Part shown: in pieces, positions 3,139 through 38,441 of the stretch | How the letters are laid out: each line of letters begins with the position of its first letter | How positions within the stretch are numbered: the stretch's first letter is position 1 | From: a virus | Reading direction: 5' to 3' (one strand) | Length of the DNA: 64,000 nt | IMG/VR virus record: IMGVR_UViG_3300045988_099276 | Location: 32,001 to 96,000 of that record | Translations under genes and position numbers: made by a program | The notes under the pieces: model-generated | The model's database searches: none | Told to the model about the DNA's origin: nothing | The model's input: only the letters and a program-made list of their open reading frames with translations

Positions 3139-4113
3139 TTATTTTTCATCGTATGCGGCAAAAGCATTTAACATTTTAGTGATAAGAGCGTGCCTTACAA
3201 CATCTGCTTCTGTCATGCGGATAACGCCAATACCAGATACATCTTTCAGACTATTGGCAAGATATTCAAGACCGCTTTCGCCTTTGGAATCTTGCTGAAC
3301 CAAATCGCCGCATAGAACAATCTTAGAATCTTCGCCTAGACGTGTGACTGCGAGCTTTCCTAGAATAGGATTCATGTTCTCTGCTTCATCCACGAGAAGA
3401 AAAGTCTTATATAATGAGCATCCGCGCATATATCCTAGCGGCAGCATTTTAATTTTACCTTTTTCAATATATGAATCAAGTTTCTCACGACCGAGGACTC
3501 GTTCAAATACATCCATCATAGGAAGTGCATATAGTGAAAACTTTTCATCGGCAGTTCCGGGAAGTGCTCCTAAATCAGCTTCACCTTTAGCTGAAACCAT
3601 TGGACGAGAAATGACAATTGTATCTACATTCTTGCTAATCAGCTGAGATAAGGCATAACATACAGCTGTGTAGGTCTTCGAGGTCCCGGCTGCCCCGATA
3701 CAAATAGTGATAGCATTGTGTCTCATACTATTAAGGTATTCAAGTTGACCTTCTGTGCGTACTTTGATTTCTTTCTTGCCATATTTTAGAATCGTAGTAG
3801 AAGAATCAGAGTTATCAAAGATGCCGCCATCTGCACTCTGCTTAGCAAGAAGTCGCACTTCATCTGTGCTGATTTCGTCTTTTGAACATGCAATTTCAAT
3901 CAGCTTTTCAAATACCTCTTGGGCTTGATATACAGATTTCTCTTTGCCAAAAATTACAATATTATTTTCTTCCTTAGAACGTCCAAGATTAACACGCAGC
4001 GTATCGTCAATTTGCTCTTTAATGGCTTTTACATATTTATCAGATGGGCCTAATACATTGACTGCATCAATACCACGAGGAATAGATACACTAGCTTGAA
4101 CACTGTTATTCAA
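3139..4113 (-). CDS. phoH: PhoH-like ATPase
   Basis: Walker A GAAGTSKT and Walker B LLVDEAEN; length and C-terminal region typical of PhoH. Confidence 0.88.
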   Translation of the reverse strand: MNNSVQASVSIPRGIDAVNVLGPSDKYVKAIKEQIDDTLRVNLGRSKEENNIVIFGKEKSVYQAQEVFEKLIEIACSKDEISTDEVRLLAKQSADGGIFDNSDSSTTILKYGKKEIKVRTEGQLEYLNSMRHNAITICIGAAGTSKTYTAVCYALSQLISKNVDTIVISRPMVSAKGEADLGALPGTADEKFSLYALPMMDVFERVLGREKLDSYIEKGKIKMLPLGYMRGCSLYKTFLLVDEAENMNPILGKLAVTRLGEDSKIVLCGDLVQQDSKGESGLEYLANSLKDVSGIGVIRMTEADVVRHALITKMLNAFAAYDEK

Positions 4114-4721: not shown

Positions 4722-5312
4722 TTAACCTTTCATCCTATAACGTCGAGAGTATTCCATCATACAACATGCGGCCGCTTGTGCAACATTTAATGAACGAATG
4801 CTGCCATCTTGACGAATATAAATCATTTCATCACACTTGTCAATAATTTCCTGCGGCAAACCATCGCACTCACTGCCATAGACAAACGCTGACTTCATCG
4901 GAATGTCTGCATCGAAAATACTCTTAGGATTATATTCAGGAATATTATCTACAGCAAAGATACTATATCCAAGAGGATGAAGAATCTCAAGGACTTCATC
5001 AAAATTATCCGCATGATATACACGCTCTACATGAGTGCTACCCACAGCTCCCCTTCTATCAAAGCGCTTGCGGCCAACGACATAAGTTTCCTTTGCAAGA
5101 AAACAATTAGATGCACGGATGATTGAACCTACATTGAAACCGTGGTCGAGATTGATACAGATATTCACTAGCGGCATACGGTTAGGTTGAAGTGCCGCAC
5201 GAATTTCCTCAGCAGACCACTTCTTATAAATGTCAATTACATTGTTACTTGGCTTTGCTTCGGTATTGATACCATGCGAATATTGAGTAATCATAATATC
5301 CTTTACATACAA
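4722..5312 (-). CDS. SpoU/TrmH-family (SPOUT) RNA 2'-O-methyltransferase
   Basis: Motifs NLDHGFNVGSIIRASN, VYGSECDGLP and IRQDGSIRSLNVAQAAA match the three SpoU motifs. Confidence 0.8.
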   Translation of the reverse strand: MYVKDIMITQYSHGINTEAKPSNNVIDIYKKWSAEEIRAALQPNRMPLVNICINLDHGFNVGSIIRASNCFLAKETYVVGRKRFDRRGAVGSTHVERVYHADNFDEVLEILHPLGYSIFAVDNIPEYNPKSIFDADIPMKSAFVYGSECDGLPQEIIDKCDEMIYIRQDGSIRSLNVAQAAACCMMEYSRRYRMKG

Positions 5313-6207: not shown

Positions 6208-7140
6208 TTATTTTGTATTTACTACTGGTGTTGACCCTTGCGGCACAACTACAGTGTTGCCATTCTTTGACATTTCCTTTAGAGCATCAATGTACTCTTG
6301 GGTTAGAACATTATCAGTCAGAGATTCATTGAGAACACGGTTTGCTTCTGCTTCTTTAGTGGCTTCAATAACCTTAGTTTCACCCTTAATCTTTGCAGTC
6401 TCCTGCTGGTTCTGAGCCTTAGCTTTCTCTACTTCTGCGGCCTGAGAATCAGCATACGCATCAGTAATAGACTTGGCATAAGAAATATCCTGAACGCTTA
6501 CCTGCTCAACAGTAAGACCAATCTTAGACCACTTCTTTTCAAGAGCCTTTTGGACAGCCTTTGTATACTGCGCACGGTCAGTTAGCATTGTAATGGTATC
6601 GAATTGACCAGAAACTTCACGTGCAACAGAACGTAGGTCATTAGCTGCGTAATTCTTGGTGAAATTCTCTTGTGTACCGTATTCAGTATAAAGATACTCG
6701 GCAGTCTTTGGATCAAGACTATAATTAACAGAAACATCGAGCGAAGCTTTAGAGCCGCTATGGTCGTTGATTGTAACTGCTGGACCTTCGGCAGAACCAC
6801 CATCATAAGAATATTCTGTGTCTTTACCGTAAAAGTTGATTAGGTTATTGCGCGTATCAAATGTAATTACATCGTTCCAAGGTGCGGTAAAATGAAAGCC
6901 TGCATCTGTAGTAGACCCAGCTAGATTACCGCCAATAGAACGAAGAACAACTACCTCACCTACGTCTTGAGAATAAATGCTGCTAAGACCAATAGCTACT
7001 AGACCAAGTACGATAACTACAGCTCGTAGTCCTAGAGGAACACGCTCTTCGTGTTTATTTTCTTTGAAGAAAGATAGACATGCGGCAATTCCACCAATTG
7101 TAATGATAATACCGATAATAAAAATAAGAATTTTAAACAT
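6208..7140 (-). CDS. SPFH/band-7 (prohibitin/HflK-C-like) membrane protein
   Basis: N-terminal TM helix; band-7-like core (VVVLRSIGG...FHFTAPW...); Ala/Glu/Lys-rich coiled coil (AYADSQAAEVEKAKAQNQQETAKIK). Confidence 0.8.
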   Translation of the reverse strand: MFKILIFIIGIIITIGGIAACLSFFKENKHEERVPLGLRAVVIVLGLVAIGLSSIYSQDVGEVVVLRSIGGNLAGSTTDAGFHFTAPWNDVITFDTRNNLINFYGKDTEYSYDGGSAEGPAVTINDHSGSKASLDVSVNYSLDPKTAEYLYTEYGTQENFTKNYAANDLRSVAREVSGQFDTITMLTDRAQYTKAVQKALEKKWSKIGLTVEQVSVQDISYAKSITDAYADSQAAEVEKAKAQNQQETAKIKGETKVIEATKEAEANRVLNESLTDNVLTQEYIDALKEMSKNGNTVVVPQGSTPVVNTK

Positions 7141-7182: not shown

Positions 7183-7695
7183 TTAAATTGCTTTTAGTTG
7201 GTCAATGATTGGCAAGATTTGCATATTGCTTGTGCCGATAGCGTAGTTTTGCTGCTCTGAAATAAATACAATTTTGTCAAAAGGTTCATCATCTTGCGGT
7301 GAGACTTTGTACATATACATTTCATCAATTTCTTTTTCGCTGATACGGTGGTATTTATCACGATTCTTATTGCGTTCAACTGCTACATTTTTTGGAGTCT
7401 CTACCCAAACACAAACAATTTCGCAACCATTGCAATTTACATTGTTGAAAAACTTATCGCGCTCTTCACGATTGATATTGCGGTCATTAGCCACAACATA
7501 GCGATGTGATTTCAAAGCAATATTTACTGCACCATAGAAACGCTTGTCAACTGTATCAGCATTTTCTGAATTATACATGCGGCAATTATCTCTCTTGATT
7601 GTCATACAGTCTTCATGTGAATCTTGAATTGCCTTTGCAAATACAGACTTGCCGCTCTGTGTTACGCCGCACATTAAAATTAGCGTATGCTTCAT
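7183..7695 (-). CDS. P-loop kinase, polynucleotide-kinase-like
   Basis: MKHTLILMCGVTQSGKS Walker A at the extreme N-terminus, followed by KRDNCR. The layout resembles the T4 Pnk kinase domain. Confidence 0.6.
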   Translation of the reverse strand: MKHTLILMCGVTQSGKSVFAKAIQDSHEDCMTIKRDNCRMYNSENADTVDKRFYGAVNIALKSHRYVVANDRNINREERDKFFNNVNCNGCEIVCVWVETPKNVAVERNKNRDKYHRISEKEIDEMYMYKVSPQDDEPFDKIVFISEQQNYAIGTSNMQILPIIDQLKAI

Positions 7696-8085: not shown

Positions 8086-8115
8086 GTAATATCCTTTCTT
8101 TTATGCGTTGGCTAT

Positions 8116-8145
8116 ATTATAAACTATAGCTATAGCGCCTGTCAA
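8116..8145 (-). promoter_or_regulatory. sigma-A-like promoter for the leftward block
   Basis: TTGACA-18 nt-TATAAT on the minus strand. Confidence 0.55.
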
Positions 8146-8181
8146 TACTTTTTTAGAAAGAATTTTAATTAAAAATTGTTC

Positions 8182-8210
8182 TTGACAAAAGATTTGAAAA
8201 TCATTATACT
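8182..8210 (+). promoter_or_regulatory. sigma-A-like promoter
   Basis: TTGACA-17 nt-TATACT. Confidence 0.5.
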
Positions 8211-8497
8211 TTTAACTGGGTTGTTAAGGGGTTTACCCCTTAAATATATATAATATAATTTATATTAGTTTATAATGTAATTAAATTAGTTTATATTAGT
8301 TTATATGTATATATTGATTTTTATATATATAAGAGATATTATATAATTGTTTTATATATAAGATTTTATTATAAAGAAATTCCTGTGCTACGCACAGTAA
8401 TTTCTATTAAAAGAAGAGAAAAAGGATTAAAGAAAAATAAACTACTTTGCTACGCAAAGTAGTAAAAAGAAACAGGAAAAAGAGAAGAAAAAAGTTC

Positions 8498-8526
8498 TTG
8501 CGTGTTGCCAAAAATTTGTGTATAAT
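8498..8526 (+). promoter_or_regulatory. sigma-A-like promoter with extended -10
   Basis: TTGCGT-17 nt-(TGTG)TATAAT. Confidence 0.55.
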
Positions 8527-8547
8527 GTAATTACGAAAGGAAACAAA

Positions 8548-9447
8548 ATGAAAACTATAAAGGAACAAATTATTGATTATGTAGAACAACATCCTAATTG
8601 CACTACATTTGAGTGTCAAGAATCCATTGGTTGTACGATTAATTACGTTAGAATTGTCTTTAAAAAAATTGGTTATAAAGCTCCAATAGTTCAACCAAAA
8701 AGAATTAAATACGTTGAAGGAAATGTTATAGGCGATAATAACGTATTTTTTAAACAACGTTTAGATAGTGAAAACGGAATCTTTATATGTCCTCTTTGTG
8801 GAAAAGAATTTGCTGGAAGTATTAGTGGCGTTGGTAAAGGACTTATTAAATCTTGTGGTTGTTTACATGATGCAGCTGCCAGAAATAATACATTTAAAGA
8901 TTTAACTGGACAAAAATTTGGAAAACTTACTGTTCAATATTGTCTTCCTTATAGTACTTCTGAAAATAGAGCGATTTGGCATTGTGTTTGTGAATGTGGT
9001 GGAGAAAAAGATGTGGTTGGTAAGTCTTTAAGACAAGGTCATACTATATCATGTGGATGCTCTAATTCAAAAGGAGAAGTAAAATTAAAACAGATATTAA
9101 CTTTGTTAAAAATAAAATTTGAAGAACAAAAAACTTTTGAAGATTTTATTACTGAACATAATCGTTATTATAGATTTGATTTTTATTTACCTGAATATAA
9201 TACTTGTATAGAATATGATGGCAAACAACATTATAAAGTTACTGGTTGGCAAACAGAAGAAAAATTAGCTGATACAAAATACAAAGACTCTATTAAGAAT
9301 AGTTATTGTATTGAAAATAATATAACACTTATTAGAATTCCATATACATATTATGATGATATAAATGAAGAAACTATTTCAAATTTATTGAAAGGAGTAA
9401 AAGATGGCACACTTCAACAAGTATGTACATTTGGAGAGGTCTACTAG
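8548..9447 (+). CDS. free-standing homing-endonuclease-like protein (Zn-ribbon repeats + DUF559/Vsr-like PD-(D/E)XK domain), paralog 1
   Basis: AAAGGAAAC SD then ATG. Repeats of type GxxFGxLTV...WxCxCxCG...SCGC. C-terminal RFDFYLPEYNTCIEYDGKQH...LIRIPY. Paralogous to 15627-16418 and 42742-43632. Confidence 0.7.
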   Translation: MKTIKEQIIDYVEQHPNCTTFECQESIGCTINYVRIVFKKIGYKAPIVQPKRIKYVEGNVIGDNNVFFKQRLDSENGIFICPLCGKEFAGSISGVGKGLIKSCGCLHDAAARNNTFKDLTGQKFGKLTVQYCLPYSTSENRAIWHCVCECGGEKDVVGKSLRQGHTISCGCSNSKGEVKLKQILTLLKIKFEEQKTFEDFITEHNRYYRFDFYLPEYNTCIEYDGKQHYKVTGWQTEEKLADTKYKDSIKNSYCIENNITLIRIPYTYYDDINEETISNLLKGVKDGTLQQVCTFGEVY

Positions 9448-10336
9448 GCAGGAAGTCCAAAATTTCGTTGGAAGAGACGTAATTTTACAAGTTAAATTAG
9501 ATGGTACGTCAGCTTCCATCTGGGTAGATGATAACGGAAATATCGCTTGCGGTAGCCGCACTCGTGAGATTTCTATTGAGAAGGATAATGCTGGCTTTGC
9601 TGATTATATCACCAACACTGACGATGCCGAGGTTAAGGCACTAAGGGATTGGTTGCTTGACCATCCTACCTATATCATTTATGGCGAGTGGCTTGGCGGT
9701 GTTGATGGCCGCAAGTTCACTGGTACTATCAAGACTTATCTTGAGGGCGGTTTCTTCATCTTTGATATTCTCAATACTGAGGATGGTGAGTATATTAATT
9801 ATGATGTATGGTATCCAGTAGTCAGCAAGTTCTATCATCGTTGCGTTCCTGTCATTTGCCGCATTAGCAACATGACTTGGGACGATGTGAACAAGCACGT
9901 TGACGAGTGTACTTATAATCTTCCGAAGGGAACCATCGGAGAGGGCATTGTAATCAAGGCTTATCCTTGCGTGCGCGACCCGTGGGGTAATGTTCAGATT
10001 GCCAAGATTGTCCGTGACGAGTGGCATCAGGATAAGTCTAAGAAGAAGCCTGTCTACACGGGCACTGACTCTTTGGAGAAGGAGTTTGTAGAGAAGTATG
10101 GCACCGATGCCTTTGTCGAGAAGGAGGTCAATAAGGTTCTTATCGCTCTTGATATGGATAAAATTGATTGTAAGAACGGCAAGTTCTTTGGTATGGCTAT
10201 CAATAAGGTTCTTGATGAACTTATGGAAGAGAACTTCTGGGATTTCTTCAAGAAGAAGAAAGCTGCTTCTGTCAAACTGGCCGCAATCAAGGGTCTTGCT
10301 CAGGAACGAGTGCGCGAGTATATTCTTAAAAACTAA
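9404..10336 (+). CDS. RNA ligase, Rnl2-like
   Basis: Motif I KLDGTS, then YGEWLG, GEGIVIK and KIVRDEW. AAAGGAG SD. Start overlaps the upstream endonuclease gene. Confidence 0.7.
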   Translation: MAHFNKYVHLERSTRQEVQNFVGRDVILQVKLDGTSASIWVDDNGNIACGSRTREISIEKDNAGFADYITNTDDAEVKALRDWLLDHPTYIIYGEWLGGVDGRKFTGTIKTYLEGGFFIFDILNTEDGEYINYDVWYPVVSKFYHRCVPVICRISNMTWDDVNKHVDECTYNLPKGTIGEGIVIKAYPCVRDPWGNVQIAKIVRDEWHQDKSKKKPVYTGTDSLEKEFVEKYGTDAFVEKEVNKVLIALDMDKIDCKNGKFFGMAINKVLDELMEENFWDFFKKKKAASVKLAAIKGLAQERVREYILKN

Positions 10337-10367
10337 ATAAAATTTTAAGTGGCTGTCAAAATTTTTC

Positions 10368-10396
10368 TTGACGGCTCACTTTTTATATGTTATAAT
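10368..10396 (+). promoter_or_regulatory. sigma-A-like promoter with extended -10
   Basis: TTGACG-17 nt-TGTTATAAT. Confidence 0.6.
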
Positions 10397-10420
10397 TATA
10401 CCAAAAGAAAGGATAATTTT

Positions 10421-10843
10421 ATGCGTATTATCAATATCAACTTAGAGGATGAATATCCTGAAAACTATGACAATCTATACGAAGCTAAAAAACGTGAGAT
10501 TGAAAAATATATGAACGATGAACAGGAAACTGCTAATCGTCATTATGAAAAGCATATCACCGCCGAGAACGAAGAAGAGCGAGAGTCTTATCTTGACCTA
10601 TATCGTCACGTTCAAGATGTTCTTATCGGTTCAAAAAATGCTTTTTCTATTATGCAAATCAAAGTCGAATACAATTGGAAAGATGACGGTAAGTGGCATC
10701 TAGCTACACGCGCTGATTACCAAGAGTACAATGGATTAACTGATAATTGCAATTGTGACCATGCGACAAAAGTAGAACCGTATAGTCAGTGGCCAACTCC
10801 AAAAGGTGGCCGCAAGATTCAAGATACAGACCAACTTCTCTAG
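10421..10843 (+). CDS. hypothetical protein
   Basis: ATG after AAAGGA SD (MRIININLEDEY...). The ORF-track start at 10349 lies inside the promoter. Confidence 0.55.
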   Translation: MRIININLEDEYPENYDNLYEAKKREIEKYMNDEQETANRHYEKHITAENEEERESYLDLYRHVQDVLIGSKNAFSIMQIKVEYNWKDDGKWHLATRADYQEYNGLTDNCNCDHATKVEPYSQWPTPKGGRKIQDTDQLL

Positions 10844-10852
10844 GGAGATTTA

Positions 10853-11065
10853 ATGACACTCGAAGATGCAATCATTCAAGGCCGACCTGAGTACAAGACT
10901 TTTGATTTGTTCGGTTTGGTAAATCAAGGTGGATATACGCATTTTGTATGGCTTGGAAATGTTGACCAAGTATATGATTACTATCAAGACCAAGAGATAG
11001 AAGCAATTAACAATTTCACTAAAGAAATTCGTTTAAAACATATCATAGAAGAATTGGAGTATTAA
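10853..11065 (+). CDS. hypothetical protein
   Basis: 70-aa ORF with GGGAG SD. Confidence 0.5.
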   Translation: MTLEDAIIQGRPEYKTFDLFGLVNQGGYTHFVWLGNVDQVYDYYQDQEIEAINNFTKEIRLKHIIEELEY

Positions 11066-11068
11066 ATT

Positions 11069-11272
11069 ATGTGGATGATTTACGGAAAGCGCACTAAAGA
11101 ACCTTACGTTGATAAGCAGTTCCGTATGCTTACAGCAAAAGGTATGCGCACAACTGATTCAAGCAAGGCAATGATGTTTGTCGAGAAGAAGGATGCCGAA
11201 GCATTCCTTGAGAAAGTCAAATCTGGCAAGACTTATTATGACCCTATTTTTGAAATCCGCAAGGCTCGCTAA
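11069..11272 (+). CDS. hypothetical protein
   Basis: 67-aa ORF with GGAG SD. Confidence 0.5.
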   Translation: MWMIYGKRTKEPYVDKQFRMLTAKGMRTTDSSKAMMFVEKKDAEAFLEKVKSGKTYYDPIFEIRKAR

Positions 11273-11514
11273 TGTATACATATATTGGTGAAGACTGGGT
11301 ATATAAAAATCTTGTGCCGCCAATGAATGTTGAATTGAAACATGGACAGCAATATGATATTCATATTGAATCTGATTCACAGATGATATATGTAAACGGA
11401 GTTCCTATAGTCACAGAGTCAGTAGAAGTAAGAGTAGTTCTGCCACCAGATTATCAAGCATGGATTCCATACAATCCAGCTAGATTTGTAAAAGACTGGC
11501 AACCAAGTGGATGA
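11272..11514 (+). CDS. hypothetical protein
   Basis: 80-aa ORF; start overlaps the previous stop (TAATG). Confidence 0.5.
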   Translation: MYTYIGEDWVYKNLVPPMNVELKHGQQYDIHIESDSQMIYVNGVPIVTESVEVRVVLPPDYQAWIPYNPARFVKDWQPSG

Positions 11515-11839
11515 TTATACAATCGTTAGCCTATATTGCCATGAGTGCGATAATGATTCATGCCCATTGTGCCGCATAGGTGAATACGTTCCAGAAGAAT
11601 CTAGGCAAGGATGCACTAGAAAATTAGACGATGATACGTATGCAGAATATGAGCATATAAACAATGAGATTCTGCCCTTTCTTTCTCTTGGTATGTATAA
11701 AAATGAGATTGAAAAGGTAGATGAATTTTTAAAATATGTCTATAAAAGATGTCCTATCGGTACAGTTTTAGATGAAAAAGGCAAGGCCATCGGCACTAAA
11801 AAGAAAATAATTGACAAATGCAACTCTGAAATGATATAA
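11507..11839 (+). CDS. hypothetical Cys-rich protein
   Basis: 110 aa with CHECDNDSCPLC near the N-terminus. Confidence 0.5.
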   Translation: MDDYTIVSLYCHECDNDSCPLCRIGEYVPEESRQGCTRKLDDDTYAEYEHINNEILPFLSLGMYKNEIEKVDEFLKYVYKRCPIGTVLDEKGKAIGTKKKIIDKCNSEMI

Positions 11840-11866
11840 TATAGTGGAACAAAGAAAGGAAACTAT

Positions 11867-12652
11867 ATGAATAAATCAGAGATGCTTAATTTTCTTGACA
11901 ATAGGTTTCGCAATTGTAATCCTGAGTTTTTGAAACTATCTCAGGTATATTTTGAAAATGAAGATGGTTACACATTTCGCACTTTTATCAAACAGATTGG
12001 TAAGACTATTGGTGCAGACTGGGTTGAAGGTGGCTGCTCTAAATCTGTATTTCATTTTAAGGAATTTAAAGACTATGTGTTCAAAATTCCTTATATTGGT
12101 GCTGCATTTATAGAAGATGAAGATTTGGTACATTATGAGATTTGTGCAGCAGAGAATAGAATCCCAATGTATTTTTGTTTCGATGATGTTACTCTATATA
12201 AAAATGCGAATAATAATGGCTTCTATCCAGTGGATGCAAACGATTATTGTGCGGCAGAAGAGTACATCTATCGAGTTGCCCGCAAGTATAAAGTTAATAA
12301 AATGCTTGCCAAGACTACATTCCTTGGTTTCGTATGCGGTATTCCGGTGTATGTCTCTTCTTGTGCAGGAACGACTTATAGTCCCAAAAAAATAGATAAT
12401 GAAACTAGTAAGATTGCAAATGCAATGATTGACAAAAGTCGCAAAGAGCACAAAGATAGCTATAGTGAATTTTGTACTACAGAGTGTGGCGTTTTCATTG
12501 AAACGTATGGTCGCAGGGCAACTCAACGTTTCATTGATTTTTTTTATAAAGAAAAGATTTCAGACTTGCATACTGGCAACTATGGTTATGATGCTTTTGG
12601 CAATTTGAAAATCATTGACTATTCTGGTTTTCATGACCTAGATGTTTTCTAA
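11867..12652 (+). CDS. hypothetical protein, possibly protein-kinase-like fold
   Basis: C-terminal ISDLHTGNYGYDAFGNLKIIDYSGF resembles a kinase catalytic loop (DxHxxN) plus a DFG-like IDYSG. Motif-level inference only. Confidence 0.5.
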   Translation: MNKSEMLNFLDNRFRNCNPEFLKLSQVYFENEDGYTFRTFIKQIGKTIGADWVEGGCSKSVFHFKEFKDYVFKIPYIGAAFIEDEDLVHYEICAAENRIPMYFCFDDVTLYKNANNNGFYPVDANDYCAAEEYIYRVARKYKVNKMLAKTTFLGFVCGIPVYVSSCAGTTYSPKKIDNETSKIANAMIDKSRKEHKDSYSEFCTTECGVFIETYGRRATQRFIDFFYKEKISDLHTGNYGYDAFGNLKIIDYSGFHDLDVF

Positions 12653-12661
12653 AAATTTTAC

Positions 12662-12691
12662 TTGACAAGTCATATAAACAGATGTTATAAT
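12662..12691 (+). promoter_or_regulatory. sigma-A-like promoter with extended -10
   Basis: TTGACA-18 nt-TGTTATAAT. Confidence 0.6.
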
Positions 12692-12728
12692 ATAGGAAAG
12701 TTTTCCTTCCAAGAGAAAGTGATAAAAT

Positions 12729-14153
12729 ATGTCTAAGTTTAATGAAAAGGTTAAGCCCGAGCGTTCTATGTCCTATGAGGGTGGTAAGAATTACAAGAAG
12801 GATGTTCTTGAGGATTGGATGAACTTCCTATTCTCTAGCAAGATGGACGATGGTTTCTACGAGAATGCCGCAACGCAGCAAACTCGTTTCATCGAGCTTA
12901 CCAATCTTGTAATTGATAAGTATGGCGCTGAGTTTGCTGGTAAGTGTGCTATGTTCACGCGAAATGCTCTAGGGCAGCGTAGCACTGCTCAGCTTGTTGC
13001 GGCTATGCTGAATGGTCAGAGCTTTGAACGCAAGCGTGATTTCTACAAGGCTTTTTGTCATCGTCCTGATGATATGTCTGAGATTTTCGCTGCTGTTGAC
13101 ATGCTTGGTGGAAAGCGTTCTCATGCTATGATTCGTGGTTTTGCAGATTATATGTCTTGTCTTTCTGAGTACAATCTTATGAAGTATCAGATGAAGGGCA
13201 AGCGTTATAACATGTATGACCTTATCAATATCATTCACCCCAAGAGTGAGATTGTTGATGATTACATGAATGGTAAGCTAGAAGCTGCTGATACTTGGGA
13301 AGTCAATATCTCCACTGGCAAGGACAGTTGGAAGAATATGGTCGAAGGTAATCGTCTCGGTTATCTCGCTCTTATCCGCAATCTCAACAACATTCTCGCA
13401 GAGAATGTTGATGATGAATGGATTAAGCGTAATCTTGTAGACCAACTTATTAACGAGGTTTCTATCAAGAAGTCTCTTGTATTCCCTTATCAGATTTATA
13501 CCGCTTATCGCAATCTTAATGTTCAGAACTTTGCGGTCATCACAGCACTTGATACTGCTTTCCGTATTGCTTGCGGCAACATGCCCAAGCTGGAAGGTAA
13601 CTCCGTTATCATGCTTGATGTTTCCGGTTCGATGGAAGACCGCTATGGTAACAAGTCAAATCTTACCATCAAGGAAGTAGGAGCTTGCTACGCTGCGGCT
13701 CTTTACATTAACGGTAATTGCGACTTTGTAAAGTTCGGCAATCGTGCTAAATCTGCAACTTTCAAGAAGGCTTGCGGTCCGTTCCAAGTCATTCGTGAAA
13801 TGTGTGAGAATGATAATTGTGGTTATGGAACTGATATTGCTCCTGCTTTCGGTCTTATCAGTGACAAGAAGTACGACCGCATCTTCGTTGTCTCTGATAT
13901 GCAGGTTATGGAGCGTGTTTCATGGTGGGGAAGTGCTAACGATATGAGCAGCTATAATAGCTACTGTGCCAACAATGGCCGCACGATTCTTTATAGTTTT
14001 GACCTTGGAAACTATTCTAGCCAGATTGCCAATCCTAACAATCCTGATGTTCACTTCATGACAGCTCTGAACGATAACGTCTTCAAGATGCTTGAATACG
14101 TAGAGAATGGCGGCAAGTTATACGACTACATCAATGATAACTACCACTTCTAA
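12729..14153 (+). CDS. Ro60/Rsr-like TROVE-domain protein with vWA domain
   Basis: N-terminal SYEGGKNYKKD...W.NFLF is TROVE-like. C-terminal vWA domain with MIDAS motif VIMLDVSGSM. 474 aa. Confidence 0.8.
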   Translation: MSKFNEKVKPERSMSYEGGKNYKKDVLEDWMNFLFSSKMDDGFYENAATQQTRFIELTNLVIDKYGAEFAGKCAMFTRNALGQRSTAQLVAAMLNGQSFERKRDFYKAFCHRPDDMSEIFAAVDMLGGKRSHAMIRGFADYMSCLSEYNLMKYQMKGKRYNMYDLINIIHPKSEIVDDYMNGKLEAADTWEVNISTGKDSWKNMVEGNRLGYLALIRNLNNILAENVDDEWIKRNLVDQLINEVSIKKSLVFPYQIYTAYRNLNVQNFAVITALDTAFRIACGNMPKLEGNSVIMLDVSGSMEDRYGNKSNLTIKEVGACYAAALYINGNCDFVKFGNRAKSATFKKACGPFQVIREMCENDNCGYGTDIAPAFGLISDKKYDRIFVVSDMQVMERVSWWGSANDMSSYNSYCANNGRTILYSFDLGNYSSQIANPNNPDVHFMTALNDNVFKMLEYVENGGKLYDYINDNYHF

Positions 14154-14171
14154 TTTTCTTTCTTTTGGTAA

Positions 14172-14198
14172 AGGCACCCTCGTGGGTGCCTTTTTTTG
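14172..14198 (+). terminator. Rho-independent terminator
   Basis: GGCACCC-TCGT-GGGTGCC followed by T7. Confidence 0.8.
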
Positions 14199-14200
14199 TA

Positions 14201-14229
14201 TTGACACTGGTAAATAAATCTGTTATAAT
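14201..14229 (+). promoter_or_regulatory. sigma-A-like promoter with extended -10
   Basis: TTGACA-17 nt-TGTTATAAT. Confidence 0.6.
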
Positions 14230-14254
14230 ACATATATAGAGAAAGGAAATAGAA

Positions 14255-15106
14255 ATGGCAGAAAATGTAAATAAGATTCAGAATAGGGTTGAAGAGCATC
14301 TTGGCGCTATCATTGATACAGGCAAGTATTCACAGTATCCATATCTTGTATGTGCCGCCAATGGTTCCATGAATTATAATCTATGGGACGAAGCATCTGA
14401 TGTTGATACCAAGTTGCTTATGATTCCAACAGCATATGATTTGTTCTTGGATAAGAAGCATCTTAATAAAGTTGAGATTATGGATAATGGTGAACATTGT
14501 ACAGTTAAAGATTTTCGAGATTATTTTAAGATTCTTCATAAGGCAAATATTAACTTCTTGGAGATTCTTTGCACTGAATATTATGTTGTTAATCCTCAGT
14601 ATAAGATTTACTGGGAATATCTCCGCAAACATTGTGATGATATCGCTAACCTTAATCCTCAGAAGCTAATCTTTTCTTCTCTTGGAATGGCTATGGAAAA
14701 GGCAAAGAAGATTTGCCATGATTCTCCTGCCAACCATGAGCTGATTGAAAAGTACGGATATGTGGCGAAGGAATTACAGCATATTATGCGACTGTATCTA
14801 TTTGTCAAGCGTTATCTTATTGATGGAGCGCCATTTTCTCAGGCTATATGGATTGATGGATATGATTCTTTTGGTAAAGAGAATCTATATCGTGATGAAA
14901 TGATGGCTATTAAACGTTATGGTATTATCTATTCGTCAGAAGATGCAAAGGCAAAGGCAGAACACTATGTAATGAAAATGGACGAGCTTATTGAGAATAA
15001 TTCTAAGTTTATTCCTGACCCGTCTAAAGATGCGGTAGATGCGCTTGAATCAACTCAGTTTGGTATCATGAATGCTTATATGTCCGCAGCCTATAATAAA
15101 CGATAA
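14255..15106 (+). CDS. Pol-beta-superfamily nucleotidyltransferase (possibly RlaP-type, RNA-repair associated)
   Basis: NGSMNYNLWDEASDVDTK fits the NTase signature GS-x(9-13)-DxD. Located next to the TROVE gene. Confidence 0.6.
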   Translation: MAENVNKIQNRVEEHLGAIIDTGKYSQYPYLVCAANGSMNYNLWDEASDVDTKLLMIPTAYDLFLDKKHLNKVEIMDNGEHCTVKDFRDYFKILHKANINFLEILCTEYYVVNPQYKIYWEYLRKHCDDIANLNPQKLIFSSLGMAMEKAKKICHDSPANHELIEKYGYVAKELQHIMRLYLFVKRYLIDGAPFSQAIWIDGYDSFGKENLYRDEMMAIKRYGIIYSSEDAKAKAEHYVMKMDELIENNSKFIPDPSKDAVDALESTQFGIMNAYMSAAYNKR

Positions 15107-15117
15107 GGAGAAAATAA

Positions 15118-15528
15118 ATGGCGCATTGTCAGCTTACAGATTGCTATTGGAATGAGGAAACTAAGGTAGCATCGGTTACTATTACTTCACAGTGGGGTAA
15201 GTTTACTGAATATGCTAAGCCGCATGATGAAGATATGGACGTTGCTAATAAGTGGATTGGTTGGAGCATTGCCGAATACAAATGCCGCATGAAGTTACAG
15301 CAGAAGCGTGCTGCGGCTATGCGTGAACGCTATTATGGTATTGTGGCTTATGAGGACCATCTTTGGTATTCATTCAAGTACAATGACGCGCTGCGTTATG
15401 CTAAAAAGGATTGGTATGATGCTCGTGACAAGTATCATGCTTTAAAGAATAATTTCCATGCATTCTGCAAAGACCAAGTGGAAAGCCGTAGGAAGTTCCT
15501 AGAAGATTTAGAAAAAAAGGGATTGTAG
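15118..15528 (+). CDS. hypothetical protein
   Basis: 136-aa ORF with AAGGAG SD. Confidence 0.55.
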   Translation: MAHCQLTDCYWNEETKVASVTITSQWGKFTEYAKPHDEDMDVANKWIGWSIAEYKCRMKLQQKRAAAMRERYYGIVAYEDHLWYSFKYNDALRYAKKDWYDARDKYHALKNNFHAFCKDQVESRRKFLEDLEKKGL

Positions 15529-15573
15529 TTTATAATGGGTGTCGATTGCTATAATCGGCATCCATTTTTTTTG

Positions 15574-15626: not shown

Positions 15627-16418
15627 TTGAGTAAAATTAAAACTGCAAAAGGTTCTTATATAGAAGATATTACTGGTCAAACTTTTAATAGGTTAACAGT
15701 TCTTGAATTAACAGATAAAAAAAATAATGACAATCGTTGGCTTTTGAAGTGTCAATGTTCTTGTGGTAATATTGTTTACGTTTCAATGCATCAGCTAAGA
15801 GCGAAAAAATATGGAACAAAATCTTGTGGTTGTTTGCAGCGAGAATGGGCAGTAAAGAAAAATAAAATGGGAACTATTGACTTGACTGGTCAACGTTATG
15901 GTATGCTAACAGTAATTAGAGATTTAGGAACAATAAATAAAATTCATTACTGGGAATGTAAATGTGATTGTGGTAATATAACAAGAGTTTCTGTAAATGA
16001 TTTGAGACGTGATTTATATGGAGATAAAACACGACACGGTACATATAGTTGTGGATGCTTATCTAAATCTGTTGGTGAGAAAAAAGTAAAAACACAATTA
16101 GAATTATTACAAATAAAATTTAAAAGAGAAAAGACATTTAAAGATTGTATAAATCCAAAAACAGGGCGTAAATTGCGTTTTGATTTTTATTTACCAGATT
16201 ATAATTGCTGTATAGAGTACGATGGATTTACTCATTTCGTTGCAAGTGGCGGATGGAATACAGAAGAAAATTTAGCTGGAATTCAATATCGAGATAATAT
16301 AAAAAATACATTTTGTAAAGATAATAATATTAGATTGGTTAGAATTCCTTATACAGATTTTAATGAAATTGATACAGATTATATTTTGAGTAGGATTGGA
16401 GATAAGATTGAGCAATAA
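15627..16418 (+). CDS. free-standing homing-endonuclease-like protein (Zn-ribbon repeats + DUF559/Vsr-like domain), paralog 2
   Basis: AAGGAGG SD then TTG. ITGQTFNRLTV...CQCSCG...SCGC occurs twice. C-terminal RFDFYLPDYNCCIEYDGFTH...LVRIPY. Confidence 0.7.
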   Translation: MSKIKTAKGSYIEDITGQTFNRLTVLELTDKKNNDNRWLLKCQCSCGNIVYVSMHQLRAKKYGTKSCGCLQREWAVKKNKMGTIDLTGQRYGMLTVIRDLGTINKIHYWECKCDCGNITRVSVNDLRRDLYGDKTRHGTYSCGCLSKSVGEKKVKTQLELLQIKFKREKTFKDCINPKTGRKLRFDFYLPDYNCCIEYDGFTHFVASGGWNTEENLAGIQYRDNIKNTFCKDNNIRLVRIPYTDFNEIDTDYILSRIGDKIEQ

Positions 16419-18279
16419 ATATACAGAAGATTCTATTCAAAAAATGGACCCATTGACTTTTACTCGCCATAGGCCAGATAGTTATTTAGGTTCAAATGAA
16501 GATTCTACGCAACTTTTACGTGAAATTATTTCAAATTCTTCTGATGAATTTTTAATTGGAAATTGTTCTGAAATTACAATTGAATATGATAAAGAAAAAA
16601 ATATTGCGAAAGTTTTTGACAATGGCCAAGGTATTTTCCCTAATGTAATAAAAGATGGTAAGTCTGTTCTTGAATTGGTGTATGGAGATATTAATTCAAG
16701 TGGTAAGTATGACAAGTCAGAAGATGCTGTATATAAGATTTCCACTGGCGCGTTTGGCATAGGAGCGGCCATTACTTGCTTTCTTTCTCATTGGCTTATT
16801 GCTACTACAAAGCGTGACGGTCAATTTGAAACAGTTTACTTTGAAGAAGGTAAATTTTCTAAACGCAAATCTGGTAAATGTGATAAGACAGAGCATGGTG
16901 TTTCTGTAGAATTCAATCCAAGCGAAGAATTTTTTAGAGATGCACATCCTAATATTTCTAAATTGAAAAAAGAATTATTCAATCTTTCGTGTGTTTGCAA
17001 GGGTCTAAAGATTATTTTCAATGGAGAAGAATTTTATCATCCAGAAGGTCTTGAAGAAATTGTTAAAGATTGTATTAATAATAGTGTTGAAATTGTAAAA
17101 ACACATTGCTGCTTTGAGCAAAAACAATCTGATACGCAAATTTTTGATTTTTGTATGTCTGCTACATCCAAAAGTAATTGTGAAATTATTCCATTTTGTA
17201 ACTATGCTTTGATTGAAAATGGCACTCCTGTTTCAGCAGTAAAATCAACTATTACTCGTTGCTTCAATAATTGGGCAAGAGAAAATGGAATTATCAAAAA
17301 GAAAGAAAAGAATCTTGATGGTTCTTCTATTCAAGAAGGACTAGTTATTGCTTTCAATTTAGTATCTCAAAATATTAGGTATGATAGTCAAACTAAAGTG
17401 AGAGCCACTTCAACAGAAGATAATCCATTTATCTCTTCTGTTCTTGGAGAACAATTAGAGGTATGGCTAGACAGCAATCCAGAAGATGCAAAGGCTATTC
17501 TTGAAAAAGCTATCCTTGCGCGAAAAGCAGCAGAAGCAGCTAAACGCGCGCGTGCGGCAGTTAAGAATAATAAAAAGCGTGGTAATAAGGTTAAGATTCT
17601 TAATCCAGACAAGCTCAAAGATGCCGAATTCCTAGGTCAAGATTCTACTCTTCTCGTTGTAGAAGGACTGTCAGCTGGAGCTTCGATGTGTGTTGCACGA
17701 GAAATTGACAAATATGGAATTTTAATGTTGCGCGGCAAGCTCATCAATGCACTAGCAAATAAAGACGATAGACTATTAAAGAACGAAGAGATTCAATTAC
17801 TTTTTAAGGCATTAGGTATTAGACCATATGAAGACTATGAAGAGACAAGTTTAAGATACGGTAGGATTGGCATCTGTGTCGATAGCGACAGTGATGGTTT
17901 TCACATCGGATTGCTTATTGCATCAGCTCTAGAACACTTTTGTCCTAAGTTCATCCGAGAAAATAGACTATGTTGGTTACGTTCTCCTCTATATATCGTC
18001 AAGTATAAAGACAAGGAACAGTATTACTTTACAGAACAAGAAATGAATGCAGCTAGACCAAATCTTCCCGCAGGAGTAGAGGTACAGCGTTGTAAGGGAT
18101 TGGGTTCCCTCTCGGCAAGCCAAGCACGTAATTCTATGTTTGGTGAGAATCAGCATATGGACGTTCTTATCCCAACAGATAAAACAAAGAATAAACTTGT
18201 AACTCTTATGGGTTCAAATGCAGATGGCCGCAAAGATTTTATTTTCAATAAGATTGACTTTAGCGAGGTGAAAGAGTAA
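16396..18279 (+). CDS. type IIA DNA topoisomerase, ATPase/TOPRIM subunit (GyrB/ParE-like)
   Basis: YTEDSIQKMDPLTFTRHRPDSYLG; GHKL motifs DNGQGI and GAFGIGA; TOPRIM motifs LVVEGLSAG and DSDSDGFHI; C-terminal QRCKGLG. Confidence 0.9.
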   Translation: MEIRLSNKYTEDSIQKMDPLTFTRHRPDSYLGSNEDSTQLLREIISNSSDEFLIGNCSEITIEYDKEKNIAKVFDNGQGIFPNVIKDGKSVLELVYGDINSSGKYDKSEDAVYKISTGAFGIGAAITCFLSHWLIATTKRDGQFETVYFEEGKFSKRKSGKCDKTEHGVSVEFNPSEEFFRDAHPNISKLKKELFNLSCVCKGLKIIFNGEEFYHPEGLEEIVKDCINNSVEIVKTHCCFEQKQSDTQIFDFCMSATSKSNCEIIPFCNYALIENGTPVSAVKSTITRCFNNWARENGIIKKKEKNLDGSSIQEGLVIAFNLVSQNIRYDSQTKVRATSTEDNPFISSVLGEQLEVWLDSNPEDAKAILEKAILARKAAEAAKRARAAVKNNKKRGNKVKILNPDKLKDAEFLGQDSTLLVVEGLSAGASMCVAREIDKYGILMLRGKLINALANKDDRLLKNEEIQLLFKALGIRPYEDYEETSLRYGRIGICVDSDSDGFHIGLLIASALEHFCPKFIRENRLCWLRSPLYIVKYKDKEQYYFTEQEMNAARPNLPAGVEVQRCKGLGSLSASQARNSMFGENQHMDVLIPTDKTKNKLVTLMGSNADGRKDFIFNKIDFSEVKE

Positions 18280-20373
18280 TTGGATTTTGAAGTAAGTTTA
18301 GACGATGTTATTGATAACAGTTTTGGACAATACGCTGGAGCAGTTATTCAATCACGTGCGCTAGTAGACGTTCGAGACTGCGTAAAGCCATCTACTAGAC
18401 AAGTCCTTTACTGTATGTTCACAGACAAATTCACTCACGACAAGCCGTTTAAAAAGACGCTGAAAGCGATAGGCAGTTGCATGAGGCTATACATTCATGG
18501 AGACGCATCTTGCGAAGGTATTGTAATGCGTAGTGGACAGCCTTTCTCCATGAGGTATCCACTAATAGAAGTGGAAGGCTCATACGGGACTTTAACAGAG
18601 ACAGGCAACTGGGCCGCACCACGATACACAGCATCGCGTCTATCTCAGCTGTCTGATTATCTTCTTAAAGAAACAGATAAATATACTGTAGATGAATGGG
18701 TAGATAACTATGACGATACTGAAAAGTATCCTAGAATTCTTTCTTCTCTTGGATTCTATAATATCGTCAATGGTACAAGTGGCATTGCGTCTGGTCTGGC
18801 CAGCTCCGTTCCACAGTTTAATCTTAAAGAAGTAAATGCGGCAATGGTATATATGCTAGAGCATAAAGATGCAACGTTTGATGATATTTTATGTTATCCT
18901 GATTTTGCTACTGGCGGCACAATCCTTAACAAAGATGAAGTGCGTGAAAGTCTTAAAACTGGTAAAGGTAAAGGTTGCATCATTCGCGCAAAACTAGAAT
19001 ATGATAAAAAAGATAATTGTATTATCGTTCGTGAACTTCCTTATAGTGTTTACACTAATACTATTTGTAATGAAATTGAAAAGATTACAAATGATGAAGA
19101 AACTAATCCCGGCATTGTTAATATCAATGACCTTACAGGCGAAAACGTCTGCATTAAGATTTATCTTTCTAAATCTGCCAATCCAAAAGAAGTAGCAACT
19201 TATCTGTTTGAAAACACTTCTCTACAGAAGACTTATGGTATCAACATGACTATGCTTGAGAATGGTCGCTATCCTAAAGTCTTTGGTTGGCAAGAAGCAT
19301 TGACCGCACACTTAAAACATGAGAAGCAAGTGTATATCAATATGTATAAGCATCAACTTGATGTTCTCAATTACAAATTGAAAATTACAAATGGTATTAT
19401 TGCGGCAATTAATAAGATTGATGAAACAGTTGAGACAATTAAAAATTCTTCTTCGACCAAAGAAGCTAATGAAAAGCTACAATCTTTCTTAGGTATTGAT
19501 GAAGACCAAGCCAAGGCAATTCTAGAGATTAAACTTGTTCGTCTTGCAAAACTAGAAGTAAACAAACTGCTTAAAGATAAAGAAAATCTTGAGTCTGAGA
19601 TTGAACGAATTAGTTCTATTCTAAATTCAAATAAACTTCTAAAGCAAGAAATGATTAAACGTTTTAATGAAGTATCTGAAAAGTTTGGAGATGAACGCCG
19701 AACTAAGGTAGTACAAAAAGAAATTACAAAGACGAAAAAGGCAAAGTCTTCTGCGCCAAAAGAAAATAGGAACTTTGTCATTGCTTTTAATCCTCTTGGT
19801 TATCTACAGAAAGTATCACCTTCTAAGTACAAGAGTGACGGTAGCCTTGCATTTACTGTATCTGAGGATAAGAAAGTAGCTCTATTCTCGAACAAGGGAC
19901 GATTCTTTAGGATTGCTCTTTCAGATATTAAAGAATGCGGCCCAAAGGGCAAGGGAACAGCTATCGGTGCAATCATCAATCTTGATAATGATGAAAAGAT
20001 TATCACAATTCACAACGATGTATTTGTAGATAAGCCTTATATGTTCTTTGTTACAGAGGACGGTAAGGTTAAGAAATGCGAAGGCAAACAATTCGCTGGC
20101 GGCACACGTAACGTCAAAGGTTCTGTGGCATTTAAGACTGACAGCAAAATCATTAGCATCCAAGAGACAAATGGATGTGTTGTAACATTAACGTCAACCA
20201 AGAGACAGATTAGTTTCATGGCTGATAGTGTGCGGGCAAGCAGTATTCGTTCTGGCGGTATGTGCGGCATTAAGCTAGACGATGATGATAAAATTGTATC
20301 TATGACAATCACTGAGCCGCAAAACTTCACAGGTAAAATTGCAAACAAGGGTGGACGAGGGACAATTCTTTAG
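18280..20373 (+). CDS. type IIA DNA topoisomerase, breakage-reunion subunit (GyrA/ParC-like)
   Basis: YAGAVIQSRALVDVRDCVKPSTRQVLY; GDASCEGIV; catalytic-Tyr context AAPRYTASRL. Confidence 0.9.
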   Translation: MDFEVSLDDVIDNSFGQYAGAVIQSRALVDVRDCVKPSTRQVLYCMFTDKFTHDKPFKKTLKAIGSCMRLYIHGDASCEGIVMRSGQPFSMRYPLIEVEGSYGTLTETGNWAAPRYTASRLSQLSDYLLKETDKYTVDEWVDNYDDTEKYPRILSSLGFYNIVNGTSGIASGLASSVPQFNLKEVNAAMVYMLEHKDATFDDILCYPDFATGGTILNKDEVRESLKTGKGKGCIIRAKLEYDKKDNCIIVRELPYSVYTNTICNEIEKITNDEETNPGIVNINDLTGENVCIKIYLSKSANPKEVATYLFENTSLQKTYGINMTMLENGRYPKVFGWQEALTAHLKHEKQVYINMYKHQLDVLNYKLKITNGIIAAINKIDETVETIKNSSSTKEANEKLQSFLGIDEDQAKAILEIKLVRLAKLEVNKLLKDKENLESEIERISSILNSNKLLKQEMIKRFNEVSEKFGDERRTKVVQKEITKTKKAKSSAPKENRNFVIAFNPLGYLQKVSPSKYKSDGSLAFTVSEDKKVALFSNKGRFFRIALSDIKECGPKGKGTAIGAIINLDNDEKIITIHNDVFVDKPYMFFVTEDGKVKKCEGKQFAGGTRNVKGSVAFKTDSKIISIQETNGCVVTLTSTKRQISFMADSVRASSIRSGGMCGIKLDDDDKIVSMTITEPQNFTGKIANKGGRGTIL

Positions 20374-37988: not shown

Positions 37989-38441
37989 ATGATTTTTCAA
38001 GTACGGCAAGGAGTGTTTGAAACTAATTCAAGCTCAACACATACGCTAACTATCTGCTCAAAAGATGATTTTGACAAGTGGAAAAATGGCGAAGTATTTT
38101 GGCTTGACAATGATTGGCATAAATTAGATACAGATAAGAATTTTGTTACCCCAGAAGAGCTAAAAGAGCTTGCGGAAAAGTACAATGAAGAACAACAGAA
38201 GCGCATTGACGCAGGAGATAAGTACGCTAAACTGCTTGATATTGACAAAGTTCTCAATGAGCGTCCAGATTACGATAGTTGGGACGATAGCTATTGGGAC
38301 ACTGAGCGTAGTGCGCTGGAAGCATATACAACAGATGATTTTTATGTACGTAACGATGAACTTGAAACTTATAGTGAAACTTTTACTTCTCCTTCTGGTG
38401 ACGAAATGGTAGCGTTTGGAGCGTTTGGATATGATGACTAA
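37989..38441 (+). CDS. hypothetical acidic protein
   Basis: 150-aa ORF with AGAGGA SD. Confidence 0.5.
   Translation: MIFQVRQGVFETNSSSTHTLTICSKDDFDKWKNGEVFWLDNDWHKLDTDKNFVTPEELKELAEKYNEEQQKRIDAGDKYAKLLDIDKVLNERPDYDSWDDSYWDTERSALEAYTTDDFYVRNDELETYSETFTSPSGDEMVAFGAFGYDD

Follow-up and report, generated by a model that had tools for sequence, protein, structure and literature searches.

The 64,000-nucleotide stretch analysed here (the window), positions 32,001 to 96,000 of the IMG/VR virus record IMGVR_UViG_3300045988_099276, carries between positions 9404 and 15106 four plus-strand genes for an ATP-dependent RNA ligase, a small protein-kinase-like (PKL) protein, a Ro60-type TROVE/vWA protein and a Pol-beta-fold nucleotidyltransferase (NTase). 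On balance, we favour the view that this block belongs to a loose cluster of early genes that encode RNA-end healing and sealing enzymes together with a Ro60 RNA-binding protein. A preliminary description of the sequence had presented the block as a phage-borne RNA-repair island. The four open reading frames (ORFs) lie where it had placed them (9404-10336, 310 aa; 11867-12652, 261 aa; 12729-14153, 474 aa; 14255-15106, 283 aa) and all four gene and domain calls were upheld. The notion of an island fared less evenly: the domains and additional toolkit genes speak for it, but separate promoters and a terminator behind the TROVE gene show that it is not one system, and the adjacency of the NTase is limited to this lineage. 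The source is an uncultured gut phage; its genome measures about 140 kb, and an anaerobic Bacillota (Firmicutes) bacterium is its probable host. For comparison we used 22 IMG/VR contigs of 78-148 kb encoding a TROVE protein 86-94% identical to that of the window (close relatives), and six sister phages (L023, L046, L048, L049, L050 and L053) with TROVE proteins 50-54% identical to it, L023 being found via kinase homologues and the other five then via the TROVE alignment.

The Ro60-like TROVE/vWA gene (12729-14153, plus strand) is monocistronic and is bordered by a promoter (12662-12691) and an intrinsic terminator (14170-14193). Its product scores 51.5 bits with PF05731 (cut-off 23; only residues 183-264 are aligned), is matched over its full length by phrog_850 (E=3.5e-28) and aligns over residues 14-394 with the Ro60 protein of Thermus phage phiLo (phiRo60; PDB 9l5y/9kop; E=1.2e-22). 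The metal ion-dependent adhesion site (D297-V-S299-G-S301, T368 and D390) is invariant in alignment A3 and coincides with the DvSgS and D-x-Q motifs of phiRo60, in agreement with the earlier call of a Ro60/TROVE protein in which this site is intact. Checked against profiles, the protein gave a divided picture: PF05731 is above its cut-off, but the vWA_Ro60 model remains sub-threshold (15.4 versus 27.7). The bacterial Rsr equivalog NF041674 is likewise missed (17.4 versus 900 bits). Based on the alignment to the solved phiRo60 ring, the protein is predicted to form a closed HEAT-repeat ring. Homologues were found in 97 phage records, and RNA ligases are located near TROVE in every lineage examined.

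The ligase gene (9404-10336, plus strand) belongs to the PF09414 clade of ATP-dependent RNA ligases (63.3 bits, cut-off 27) and has a full-length match to phrog_548 "RNA ligase" (E=7.5e-40). Motifs I, III, IIIa, IV and V (K31-x-D33-G34, E95, F120, E180-G181, K201 and K211) are invariant across eight sequences with identity down to 29%, and the N-terminal nucleotidyltransferase domain is followed by a C-terminal domain of about 110 helical residues. In a profile search of the PDB, the family recovered the Naegleria RNA ligase NgrRnl (3e-12, nucleotidyltransferase domain only), T4 Rnl2 (2hvq; 1e-7, query residues 21-275, target to residue 302) and Pab1020 (4e-5).

The NTase (14255-15106, plus strand; promoter 14201-14229) is a divergent relative of RlaP (PF10127). 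It is matched by phrog_388 "nucleotidyltransferase" (E=2.4e-13), its G37-S38 and D49-x-D51 motifs are invariant in 22 homologues, and its AlphaFold2 model (predicted local distance difference test, pLDDT, 91.8) finds the kanamycin nucleotidyltransferase ANT(4') (E=3e-5, probability 1.0), LinB and HalB as best Foldseek matches, all of which supports the Pol-beta fold named in the preliminary description. PF10127 itself is reached by 11 of the 22 homologues (E<=0.01, best 4.2e-6), three homologues have precomputed matches to this family, and the NTase family profile recovered none of the solved structures by sequence. In all close relatives the PF09414 ligase gene (in the window 3.9 kb upstream of the NTase, on the same strand) and a second, Rnl1-type ligase gene belong to the same region. 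Pseudomonas RlaP was shown to extend RNA 3'-OH ends by one or two nucleoside monophosphates and to restore repaired tRNA (PMC12776372).

The RNA toolkit extends past the four genes first noted, as the minus strand also encodes an Rnl1-type ligase, a tRNA-Arg and a P-loop kinase. The product of the T4 Rnl1-type ligase gene (616-1560) scores 140.8 bits with PF09511 (RNA_lig_T4_1) and is related to the ligase domains of fungal tRNA ligase (Trl1) in the PDB (E=1e-10); in the sister loci L046 and L050 a gene of this type is positioned directly 3' of TROVE. The tRNA-Arg(UCU) gene (1874-1950), recognised by both ARAGORN and the Rfam tRNA model (69.6 bits), is part of an indel of about 120 nt (1858-1976), which about 12 of 23 relatives' loci (e.g. 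L291, L296 and L303) lack in their alignments. The P-loop polynucleotide 5'-kinase-like protein (7183-7695, 170 aa) consists of the kinase domain only and is matched by AAA_33 (51.3 bits), by phrog_505 "polynucleotide kinase" (E=4.7e-14) and by the TIGR04075 model in its Pnkp N-terminal region (30.9 bits), with a Walker A motif (GVTQSGKS) and a D-x-x-R motif (D36-N-C-R39) in place. Its PDB matches are 4gp7 and 4jst (E=3e-4), 171-residue chains named "Metallophosphoesterase", which we take to be the kinase domain of Clostridium thermocellum Pnkp. A fused 3'-phosphatase or phosphoesterase domain was not found in the 7183-7695 protein. In most close relatives, the region immediately left of the window contains a tRNA cluster, an array of Y-like RNAs and a metallophosphoesterase gene; this separate Metallophos_2 gene (L295:18440-18988, 43 bits) is located beside the array. 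The RNA-repair reading gains support because the Rnl1-type ligase, the P-loop polynucleotide kinase and the tRNA-Arg gene, none of which had been listed before, are encoded nearby.

All 22 close relatives share one gene order: the polynucleotide kinase-like gene on the minus strand, a divergent intergenic region, the ligase, small ORFs, the PKL kinase, TROVE, the NTase, a 136-aa ORF and gyrase B. Because this order is kept in the 22 IMG/VR relatives, the block is no chance arrangement. The order of ligase, PKL kinase and TROVE is also retained in all six sister loci.

Combining the observed domain identities, intact motifs, synteny, separate promoters and Y-like genes of the relatives with what is known of the protein families, we can sketch how the genes would act. 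Cleavage of tRNAs or other RNAs by host ribonucleases may leave 5'-OH and 2',3'-cyclic phosphate ends, and in some cases a nucleotide would be lost. The P-loop kinase (7183-7695) would phosphorylate the 5' end, the metallophosphoesterase that relatives encode immediately left of the window would clear the 3' end, and the RlaP-like NTase (14255-15106) would restore one or two 3' nucleotides. Sealing could then be divided between the Rnl1-type ligase (616-1560), acting on broken stem-loops, and the PF09414 ligase (9404-10336), acting on nicked duplex RNA. The TROVE/vWA ring (12729-14153) would bind phage Y-like RNAs and, by means of these, either present damaged or misfolded RNA ends for processing or capture a host 3'-5' exonuclease such as PNPase. 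Phage sets of Rnl1/Rnl2/RtcB, polynucleotide kinase, RlaP and ROT/TROVE have been described before and were read as a counter to host RNases (PMC7824862).

Several observations weigh against this reading, the first being the transcriptional layout. Perfect TTGACA/TGnTATAAT promoters precede the PKL kinase (11811), TROVE (12662), the NTase (14201) and a second homing endonuclease gene (15574), so that the PKL kinase, TROVE and NTase genes have one sigma-70 promoter each with 12/12 consensus positions, and the same promoter/terminator scan placed terminators 3' of the ligase gene, of TROVE and of the ORF at 15118-15528. Because of these four separate consensus promoters and the three terminators, the block is not one operon but a series of separate transcription units. 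One could thus regard the four genes as unrelated early genes and chance neighbours that reflect the usual clustering of nucleic-acid metabolism genes in a large phage. A promoter for each gene fits this explanation, as do the variable ORFs and homing endonucleases scattered among the four genes, the occurrence of the PKL kinase family elsewhere beside PARG, gyrase, Rnl1 or nothing notable, and flanks that consist of gyrase subunits, PhoH, dCMP deaminase and an SPFH protein. Nevertheless, we regard it as unlikely: the order of Rnl, kinase, (YrlA) and TROVE persists down to about 50% TROVE and 26-31% kinase identity, and five to six RNA-end enzymes within 15 kb are denser than expected by chance and fit the published phage sets (PMC7824862).

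The remaining points on this side concern the individual components. The PF09414 ligase falls below the Rnl2 equivalog TIGR02307 (31.8 versus 197.15 bits, residues 4-212 aligned) and its nucleotidyltransferase core is nearest to NgrRnl, a nick-sealing enzyme. Since the equivalog cut-off is missed, the earlier term "Rnl2-like" seems correct for architecture and clade, but not in the sense of strict Rnl2 membership. The NTase has no PF10127 match at E<=0.1 and no Pfam match of its own; because its homologues and not the window protein match PF10127, the link to RlaP is transitive, and the kinship with Ro-linked NTases (RlaP) that the preliminary description suggested holds to this extent only. 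Moreover, the NTase adjoins TROVE in the window lineage only, as the six sister loci have no NTase there, and its position next to TROVE is a lineage-specific gain. Neither a phosphatase nor a cyclic phosphodiesterase is present in the 64-kb window. The Y-like array of the exact window genome is inferred from relatives, because the window ends before that position. A place of the PKL kinase in RNA repair is unsupported beyond the clade neighbourhood, since its family also occurs in TROVE-less phage regions. Finally, the one function tested for a phage Ro60 lies outside RNA repair: the phiLo protein, the only phage Ro60 studied biochemically, binds two Y-like RNAs and reduces the activity of host PNPase by forming a complex with it (PMC12135203).

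This last finding leads to a second explanation, in which Ro60 would serve host takeover: TROVE and its Y-like RNAs might capture, attenuate or re-target a host 3'-5' exonuclease (e.g. PNPase) and in this way protect phage transcripts or disable an RNA-based defence, the ligases and the NTase being independent of it. The match of the window TROVE to phiLo Ro60 (E=1e-22) points in this direction, together with the separate transcription unit of TROVE and the fact that in sister phages YrlA-like RNAs accompany TROVE and the NTase does not. On the other hand, TROVE is accompanied by RNA ligases in every lineage examined. We therefore consider host takeover somewhat improbable as the explanation for Ro60, bearing in mind that it is compatible with the repair reading.

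The PKL-fold gene (11867-12652, plus strand; promoter 11811-11840, 12/12 with TG) encodes a small stand-alone protein, and the preliminary description had called it kinase-like. This call is borne out by the presence of every catalytic motif (G56, K59, K73, D233-L-H235-x-x-N238 and D251-Y-S-G-F255, invariant in 19 sequences with at least 26% identity), by a confident AlphaFold2 model (pLDDT 90.3) and by Foldseek, where the top 50 PDB matches are all kinases, nearly all of protein-kinase-like fold and including APH(2''), Rio2, OspG, NleH and FN3K, albeit with weak scores (best E=6e-3, TM about 0.3-0.45). With these motifs intact, it is an active-looking enzyme. No Pfam or PHROG family matches the protein, one homologue touches Choline_kinase (1.6e-4), and tblastn against 50,697 GenBank phage records retrieved nothing. 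In a profile search the family comprises at least 2,866 cluster representatives (50% identity) at E<=0.001, with 392 at E<=1e-30; almost all of the best-scoring 150 are proteins that stand alone and measure about 190-280 aa, and among ten sampled members none has a Pfam family and one a weak PHROG match.

As the kinase adjoins a YrlA-like RNA and TROVE in all six sister loci, and TROVE in the 22 close relatives, with all catalytic residues intact, it could also be the polynucleotide or RNA-end kinase of a Ro60 module with a core of kinase, Y RNA and TROVE, or it could phosphorylate Ro60 or a host RNA enzyme. We judge this to be the least probable of the explanations considered. Among six contexts collected via kinase homologues alone, YrlA and TROVE adjoin the kinase in one and an Rnl1 ligase is present in one; the others show a metallophosphoesterase together with dCMP deaminase (one), a PARG-like neighbour (one) or nothing telling (two). 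In fold, the protein is nearest to small-molecule and protein kinases, at weak scores, and we know of no PKL-fold polynucleotide kinase. The proteins that follow the kinase homologue in L025 (417 and 272 aa) and a 269-aa protein after TROVE in L023 were considered as well and are unrelated to TROVE or the NTase.

Ro proteins normally act together with a Y RNA. In many phages, YrlA genes adjoin Ro60 genes (PMC4201824). The preliminary description had seen no obvious Y-RNA gene in the short spacers flanking TROVE, which is in line with our data. Rfam (including YrlA, RF02553) revealed neither Y RNA nor YrlA over the 64-kb window, even at E<=10, and our covariance model R1, built from seven YrlA-like RNAs of the sister lineages, gave with filters switched off a best score of 13 bits (E=1.2) with the tRNA-like core deleted, and thus no Y RNA. 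Motif scans for the Y-like module across the window, including 8086-8517, were negative too. The two short spacers flanking TROVE (12653-12728 and 14154-14254) contain no structured RNA gene and are filled by sigma-70 promoters (12662-12691 and 14201-14229) and one intrinsic terminator (14170-14193). A candidate RNA gene in the TROVE-NTase spacer (z = -5.8) was dismissed, as its fold is explained by terminator, promoter and leader sequence. The gap between PKL kinase and TROVE spans 76 nt in the window and 66-80 nt in its lineage.

In the six sister phages, the gap between these two genes is a non-coding region of 0.5-1 kb, and all six have Rfam YrlA matches in it at 27-35 bits, below the gathering score of 69. 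The seven RNAs (L023:8979-9120, L053:5423-5560, L048:5608-5724, L049:5584-5711, L046:5821-5944, L050:5460-5573 and L050:5636-5757) align with a conserved T-arm, a variable hairpin and a D-arm, and 11 of 17 predicted pairs of the tRNA-like core show compensatory changes. In the 0.5-kb gap of L023, reading of the sequence suggested three further units, each starting with a GAUGAU motif. Pattern scans of IMG/VR with YrlA-like motifs were uninformative on the window lineage; among the matches listed, most come from unrelated contigs and tRNA arrays.

Y-like RNAs of the window lineage came to light in a leftward walk from the Rnl1 gene through 23 loci (L291-L313) extending about 10 kb past the left end of the window. 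These left flanks contain a tRNA cluster, and within it a Y-like array is present in about 20 of the 23 loci, typically with five units. In L295, five tandem units occupy 17811-18346 on the plus strand of the locus, which is the minus strand of the window; window position 1 equals L295 position 11581, which puts the array 6.2-6.8 kb left of the window. A terminator and then the metallophosphoesterase gene follow 3' of it. TROVE and array were found on one contig, about 18 kb apart, as the loci L010 and L295 are both from IMGVR_UViG_3300045988_074091. In each unit an outer stem (5-8 bp) is followed by a 5' UGAU-NNN loop; the inner stem (7-8 bp) comes next, then UACUUC and a variable tip, and a 3' UUUUC precedes the closing strand. 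The inner stems (AAAUCAGU, GAUUCAGU, GUUUCAG, UAAAGAGU and UAUUCAGU) differ between units yet remain complementary, and RNAfold recovered the two-stem layout unprompted for every unit. This terminal-stem module is common to the array units and the YrlA-like RNAs of the sister phages; the T-arm is kept in one of the five units and the D-arm in none.

A motif scan of the lineage left flanks yielded 111 matches to the 5' motif, 87 of them with both stems paired (3 after shuffling of the 5' stem halves). The corresponding numbers were 1 and 0 for the window, 12 and 0 for the 22 TROVE-region loci, and 72 and 8 for 2.1 Mb of unrelated viral DNA. One type of R1 match marks a unit about 100 nt long that occurs in 16 genomes or more and, like the sister RNAs, combines the AGUUACUUC motif with a T-arm and a 3' UAUCUUUUCC tail. 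R1 matches at model positions 34-95 were rejected as an artefact of two adjacent tRNAs (the T-arm of one and the D-arm of a tRNA-Asn), and the Rfam "YrlA" matches of 40-41 bits at L295:16980-17108 and L307:16740-16868 are the same tRNA-junction artefact; the upstream tRNA of this junction is an Rfam tRNA (L295:16957-17025) that ARAGORN had missed. For the Y-like array, Rfam gave no match, and blastn retrieved nothing from GenBank phages.

We tentatively propose, well short of conviction, that the lineage moved the partner RNAs of Ro60 away from the gene and expanded them to about five minimal Y-like RNAs in the tRNA cluster, a subclass that goes undetected by Rfam YrlA. Its units could tether Ro60 to different clients, with the PKL kinase as a conceivable partner.

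The remaining elements of the region are of a more variable nature. Between the minus- and plus-strand blocks, a divergent regulatory region (8086-8517) with promoters, AT-rich repeats of the ATTAGTTTATA type whose copy number varies among genomes and two conserved hairpins (8383-8397 and 8441-8463) was delimited in a 16-genome alignment, and the second hairpin shows compensatory G-C to A-T changes between genomes. Both hairpins were discarded as Y RNAs, as the Y module is missing and they resemble minus-strand terminators or protein-binding palindromes. We also noticed that the contigs of several relatives start or stop inside this intergenic region and that the sign of the GC skew switches there; the region may mark the end of the genome, an origin of replication or a break point of assembly.

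A homing endonuclease gene (8518-9447, plus strand; phrog_559, E=1.7e-33), a mobile insertion, overlaps the start of the ligase gene, with a close copy (84-99%) in 3 of the 22 relatives and a distant homing endonuclease gene at the same position in two more. Its paralogue (15627-16418, plus strand; phrog_559, E=1.2e-38) precedes gyrase B and was found in about 8 of 22 relatives. Relatives of both genes occupy other positions in other genomes. Five small plus-strand ORFs without family matches fill the region from 10349 to 11839. The first of them (10349-10843) is variably present like the two endonucleases, and all three therefore fall outside the gene set. The last (11507-11839), a Cys-rich ORF of 110 aa (CHEC...CPLC) with no family match, is found beside the PKL kinase in all close relatives and is present but inverted in the sister lineages. 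Downstream of the NTase, the 136-aa ORF (15118-15528, plus strand; terminator 15534-15566), also without a family match, is kept in all 21 relatives whose locus extends there, and it is probably co-transcribed with the NTase because a separate promoter was not found. Further early genes on the minus strand, neighbours of those for the RNA enzymes, encode a dCMP deaminase (2356-2799), a PhoH-like ATPase (3139-4113), a SpoU-family RNA methylase (4722-5312), which fits the RNA toolkit as well, and an SPFH/Band 7 membrane protein (6208-7140).

The phage origin of the window is evident from hallmark genes for gyrase/topoisomerase IV A and B, DNA polymerase III alpha, DnaB and RecJ, in addition to an anaerobic ribonucleotide reductase, an amidase and tail proteins. 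Its polymerase is nearest to that of SPbeta-like Bacillus phages (38% identity), and DNA nearly identical to the window, the 9404-15106 block included, is absent from GenBank phages. Just upstream of the anaerobic ribonucleotide reductase gene, a 713-aa ORF (38416-40557) with a LAGLIDADG_3 domain may represent either an intein or a fusion of the free-standing homing endonuclease type.

Concerning novelty, the gene set itself repeats the published phage theme of Rnl1/Rnl2, polynucleotide kinase, RlaP and TROVE, and a modest degree of novelty lies in the PKL kinase family and in the relocated Y-like array. What goes beyond routine annotation is the gain of an NTase beside TROVE, the loss of YrlA there with an array elsewhere, and an unannotated kinase-fold family. 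For the role of phage Ro60, RNA repair and exonuclease hijack are the published options, and the clade offers a natural comparison between sisters with a YrlA-like RNA beside TROVE and a lineage with a tRNA-cluster array and an RlaP-like NTase. The array units and the kinase family provide concrete substrates for binding and activity assays.

Considering known systems, the PKL protein shares the glycine loop, the beta3 lysine, D-x-H-x-x-N and D-[FY]-[SG]-G with OspG/NleH, Rio2, APH(2''), FN3K and choline kinase, and like the minimal kinases it is a small single domain of about 260 aa; it differs from them in having no significant sequence similarity to any Pfam kinase family. The NTase resembles RlaP (PfRlaP/PaRlaP and T4 NrdC.11; PMC12776372) in its Pol-beta fold with GS...DxD, its helical C-terminal domain and its location near RNA ligases, but in contrast to RlaP it has no PF10127 match and finds its best structural matches in ANT(4'), LinB and HalB. 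As in the Salmonella rsr-yrlBA-rtcBA system (RF02553; PMC4201824), a TROVE/vWA gene is linked with RNA ligase genes, and the RNAs of the sister phages have the YrlA layout of a tRNA-like domain with T-arm and D-arm and a terminal bulged stem. Unlike in Salmonella, the ligases of the window are ATP-dependent Rnl types and not RtcB, and the TROVE protein is not the Rsr equivalog; compared to bacterial YrlA, the units of the window lineage are mostly minimal and the sister matches reach 27-35 bits versus 69.

The closest solved homologue of the window TROVE is phiRo60 of phiLo (PDB 9l5y, 9kop; PMC12135203), with both the HEAT-repeat region and the vWA DxSxS covered by the alignment, although the sequence similarity is distant. 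phiLo likewise encodes Y-like RNAs. Its Yrl RNAs are placed directly upstream of the Ro60 gene, whereas the window has only a promoter there and the candidates are about 18-19 kb away in relatives. With T4 (Pnkp, Rnl1, Rnl2 and NrdC.11/RlaP) and the ROT/TROVE sets of jumbo phages (PMC7824862) the window has gene families in common, and here, too, a large phage has these genes in its early region, close to tRNA genes. Compared to these sets, the genome is with about 140 kb under the jumbo threshold, the polynucleotide kinase is without a fused phosphatase domain, and the NTase and ligase are divergent, under the cut-offs of the RlaP and Rnl2 models. In addition, the window possesses an uncharacterised PKL kinase, and its lineage keeps the Y-like RNAs away from TROVE.

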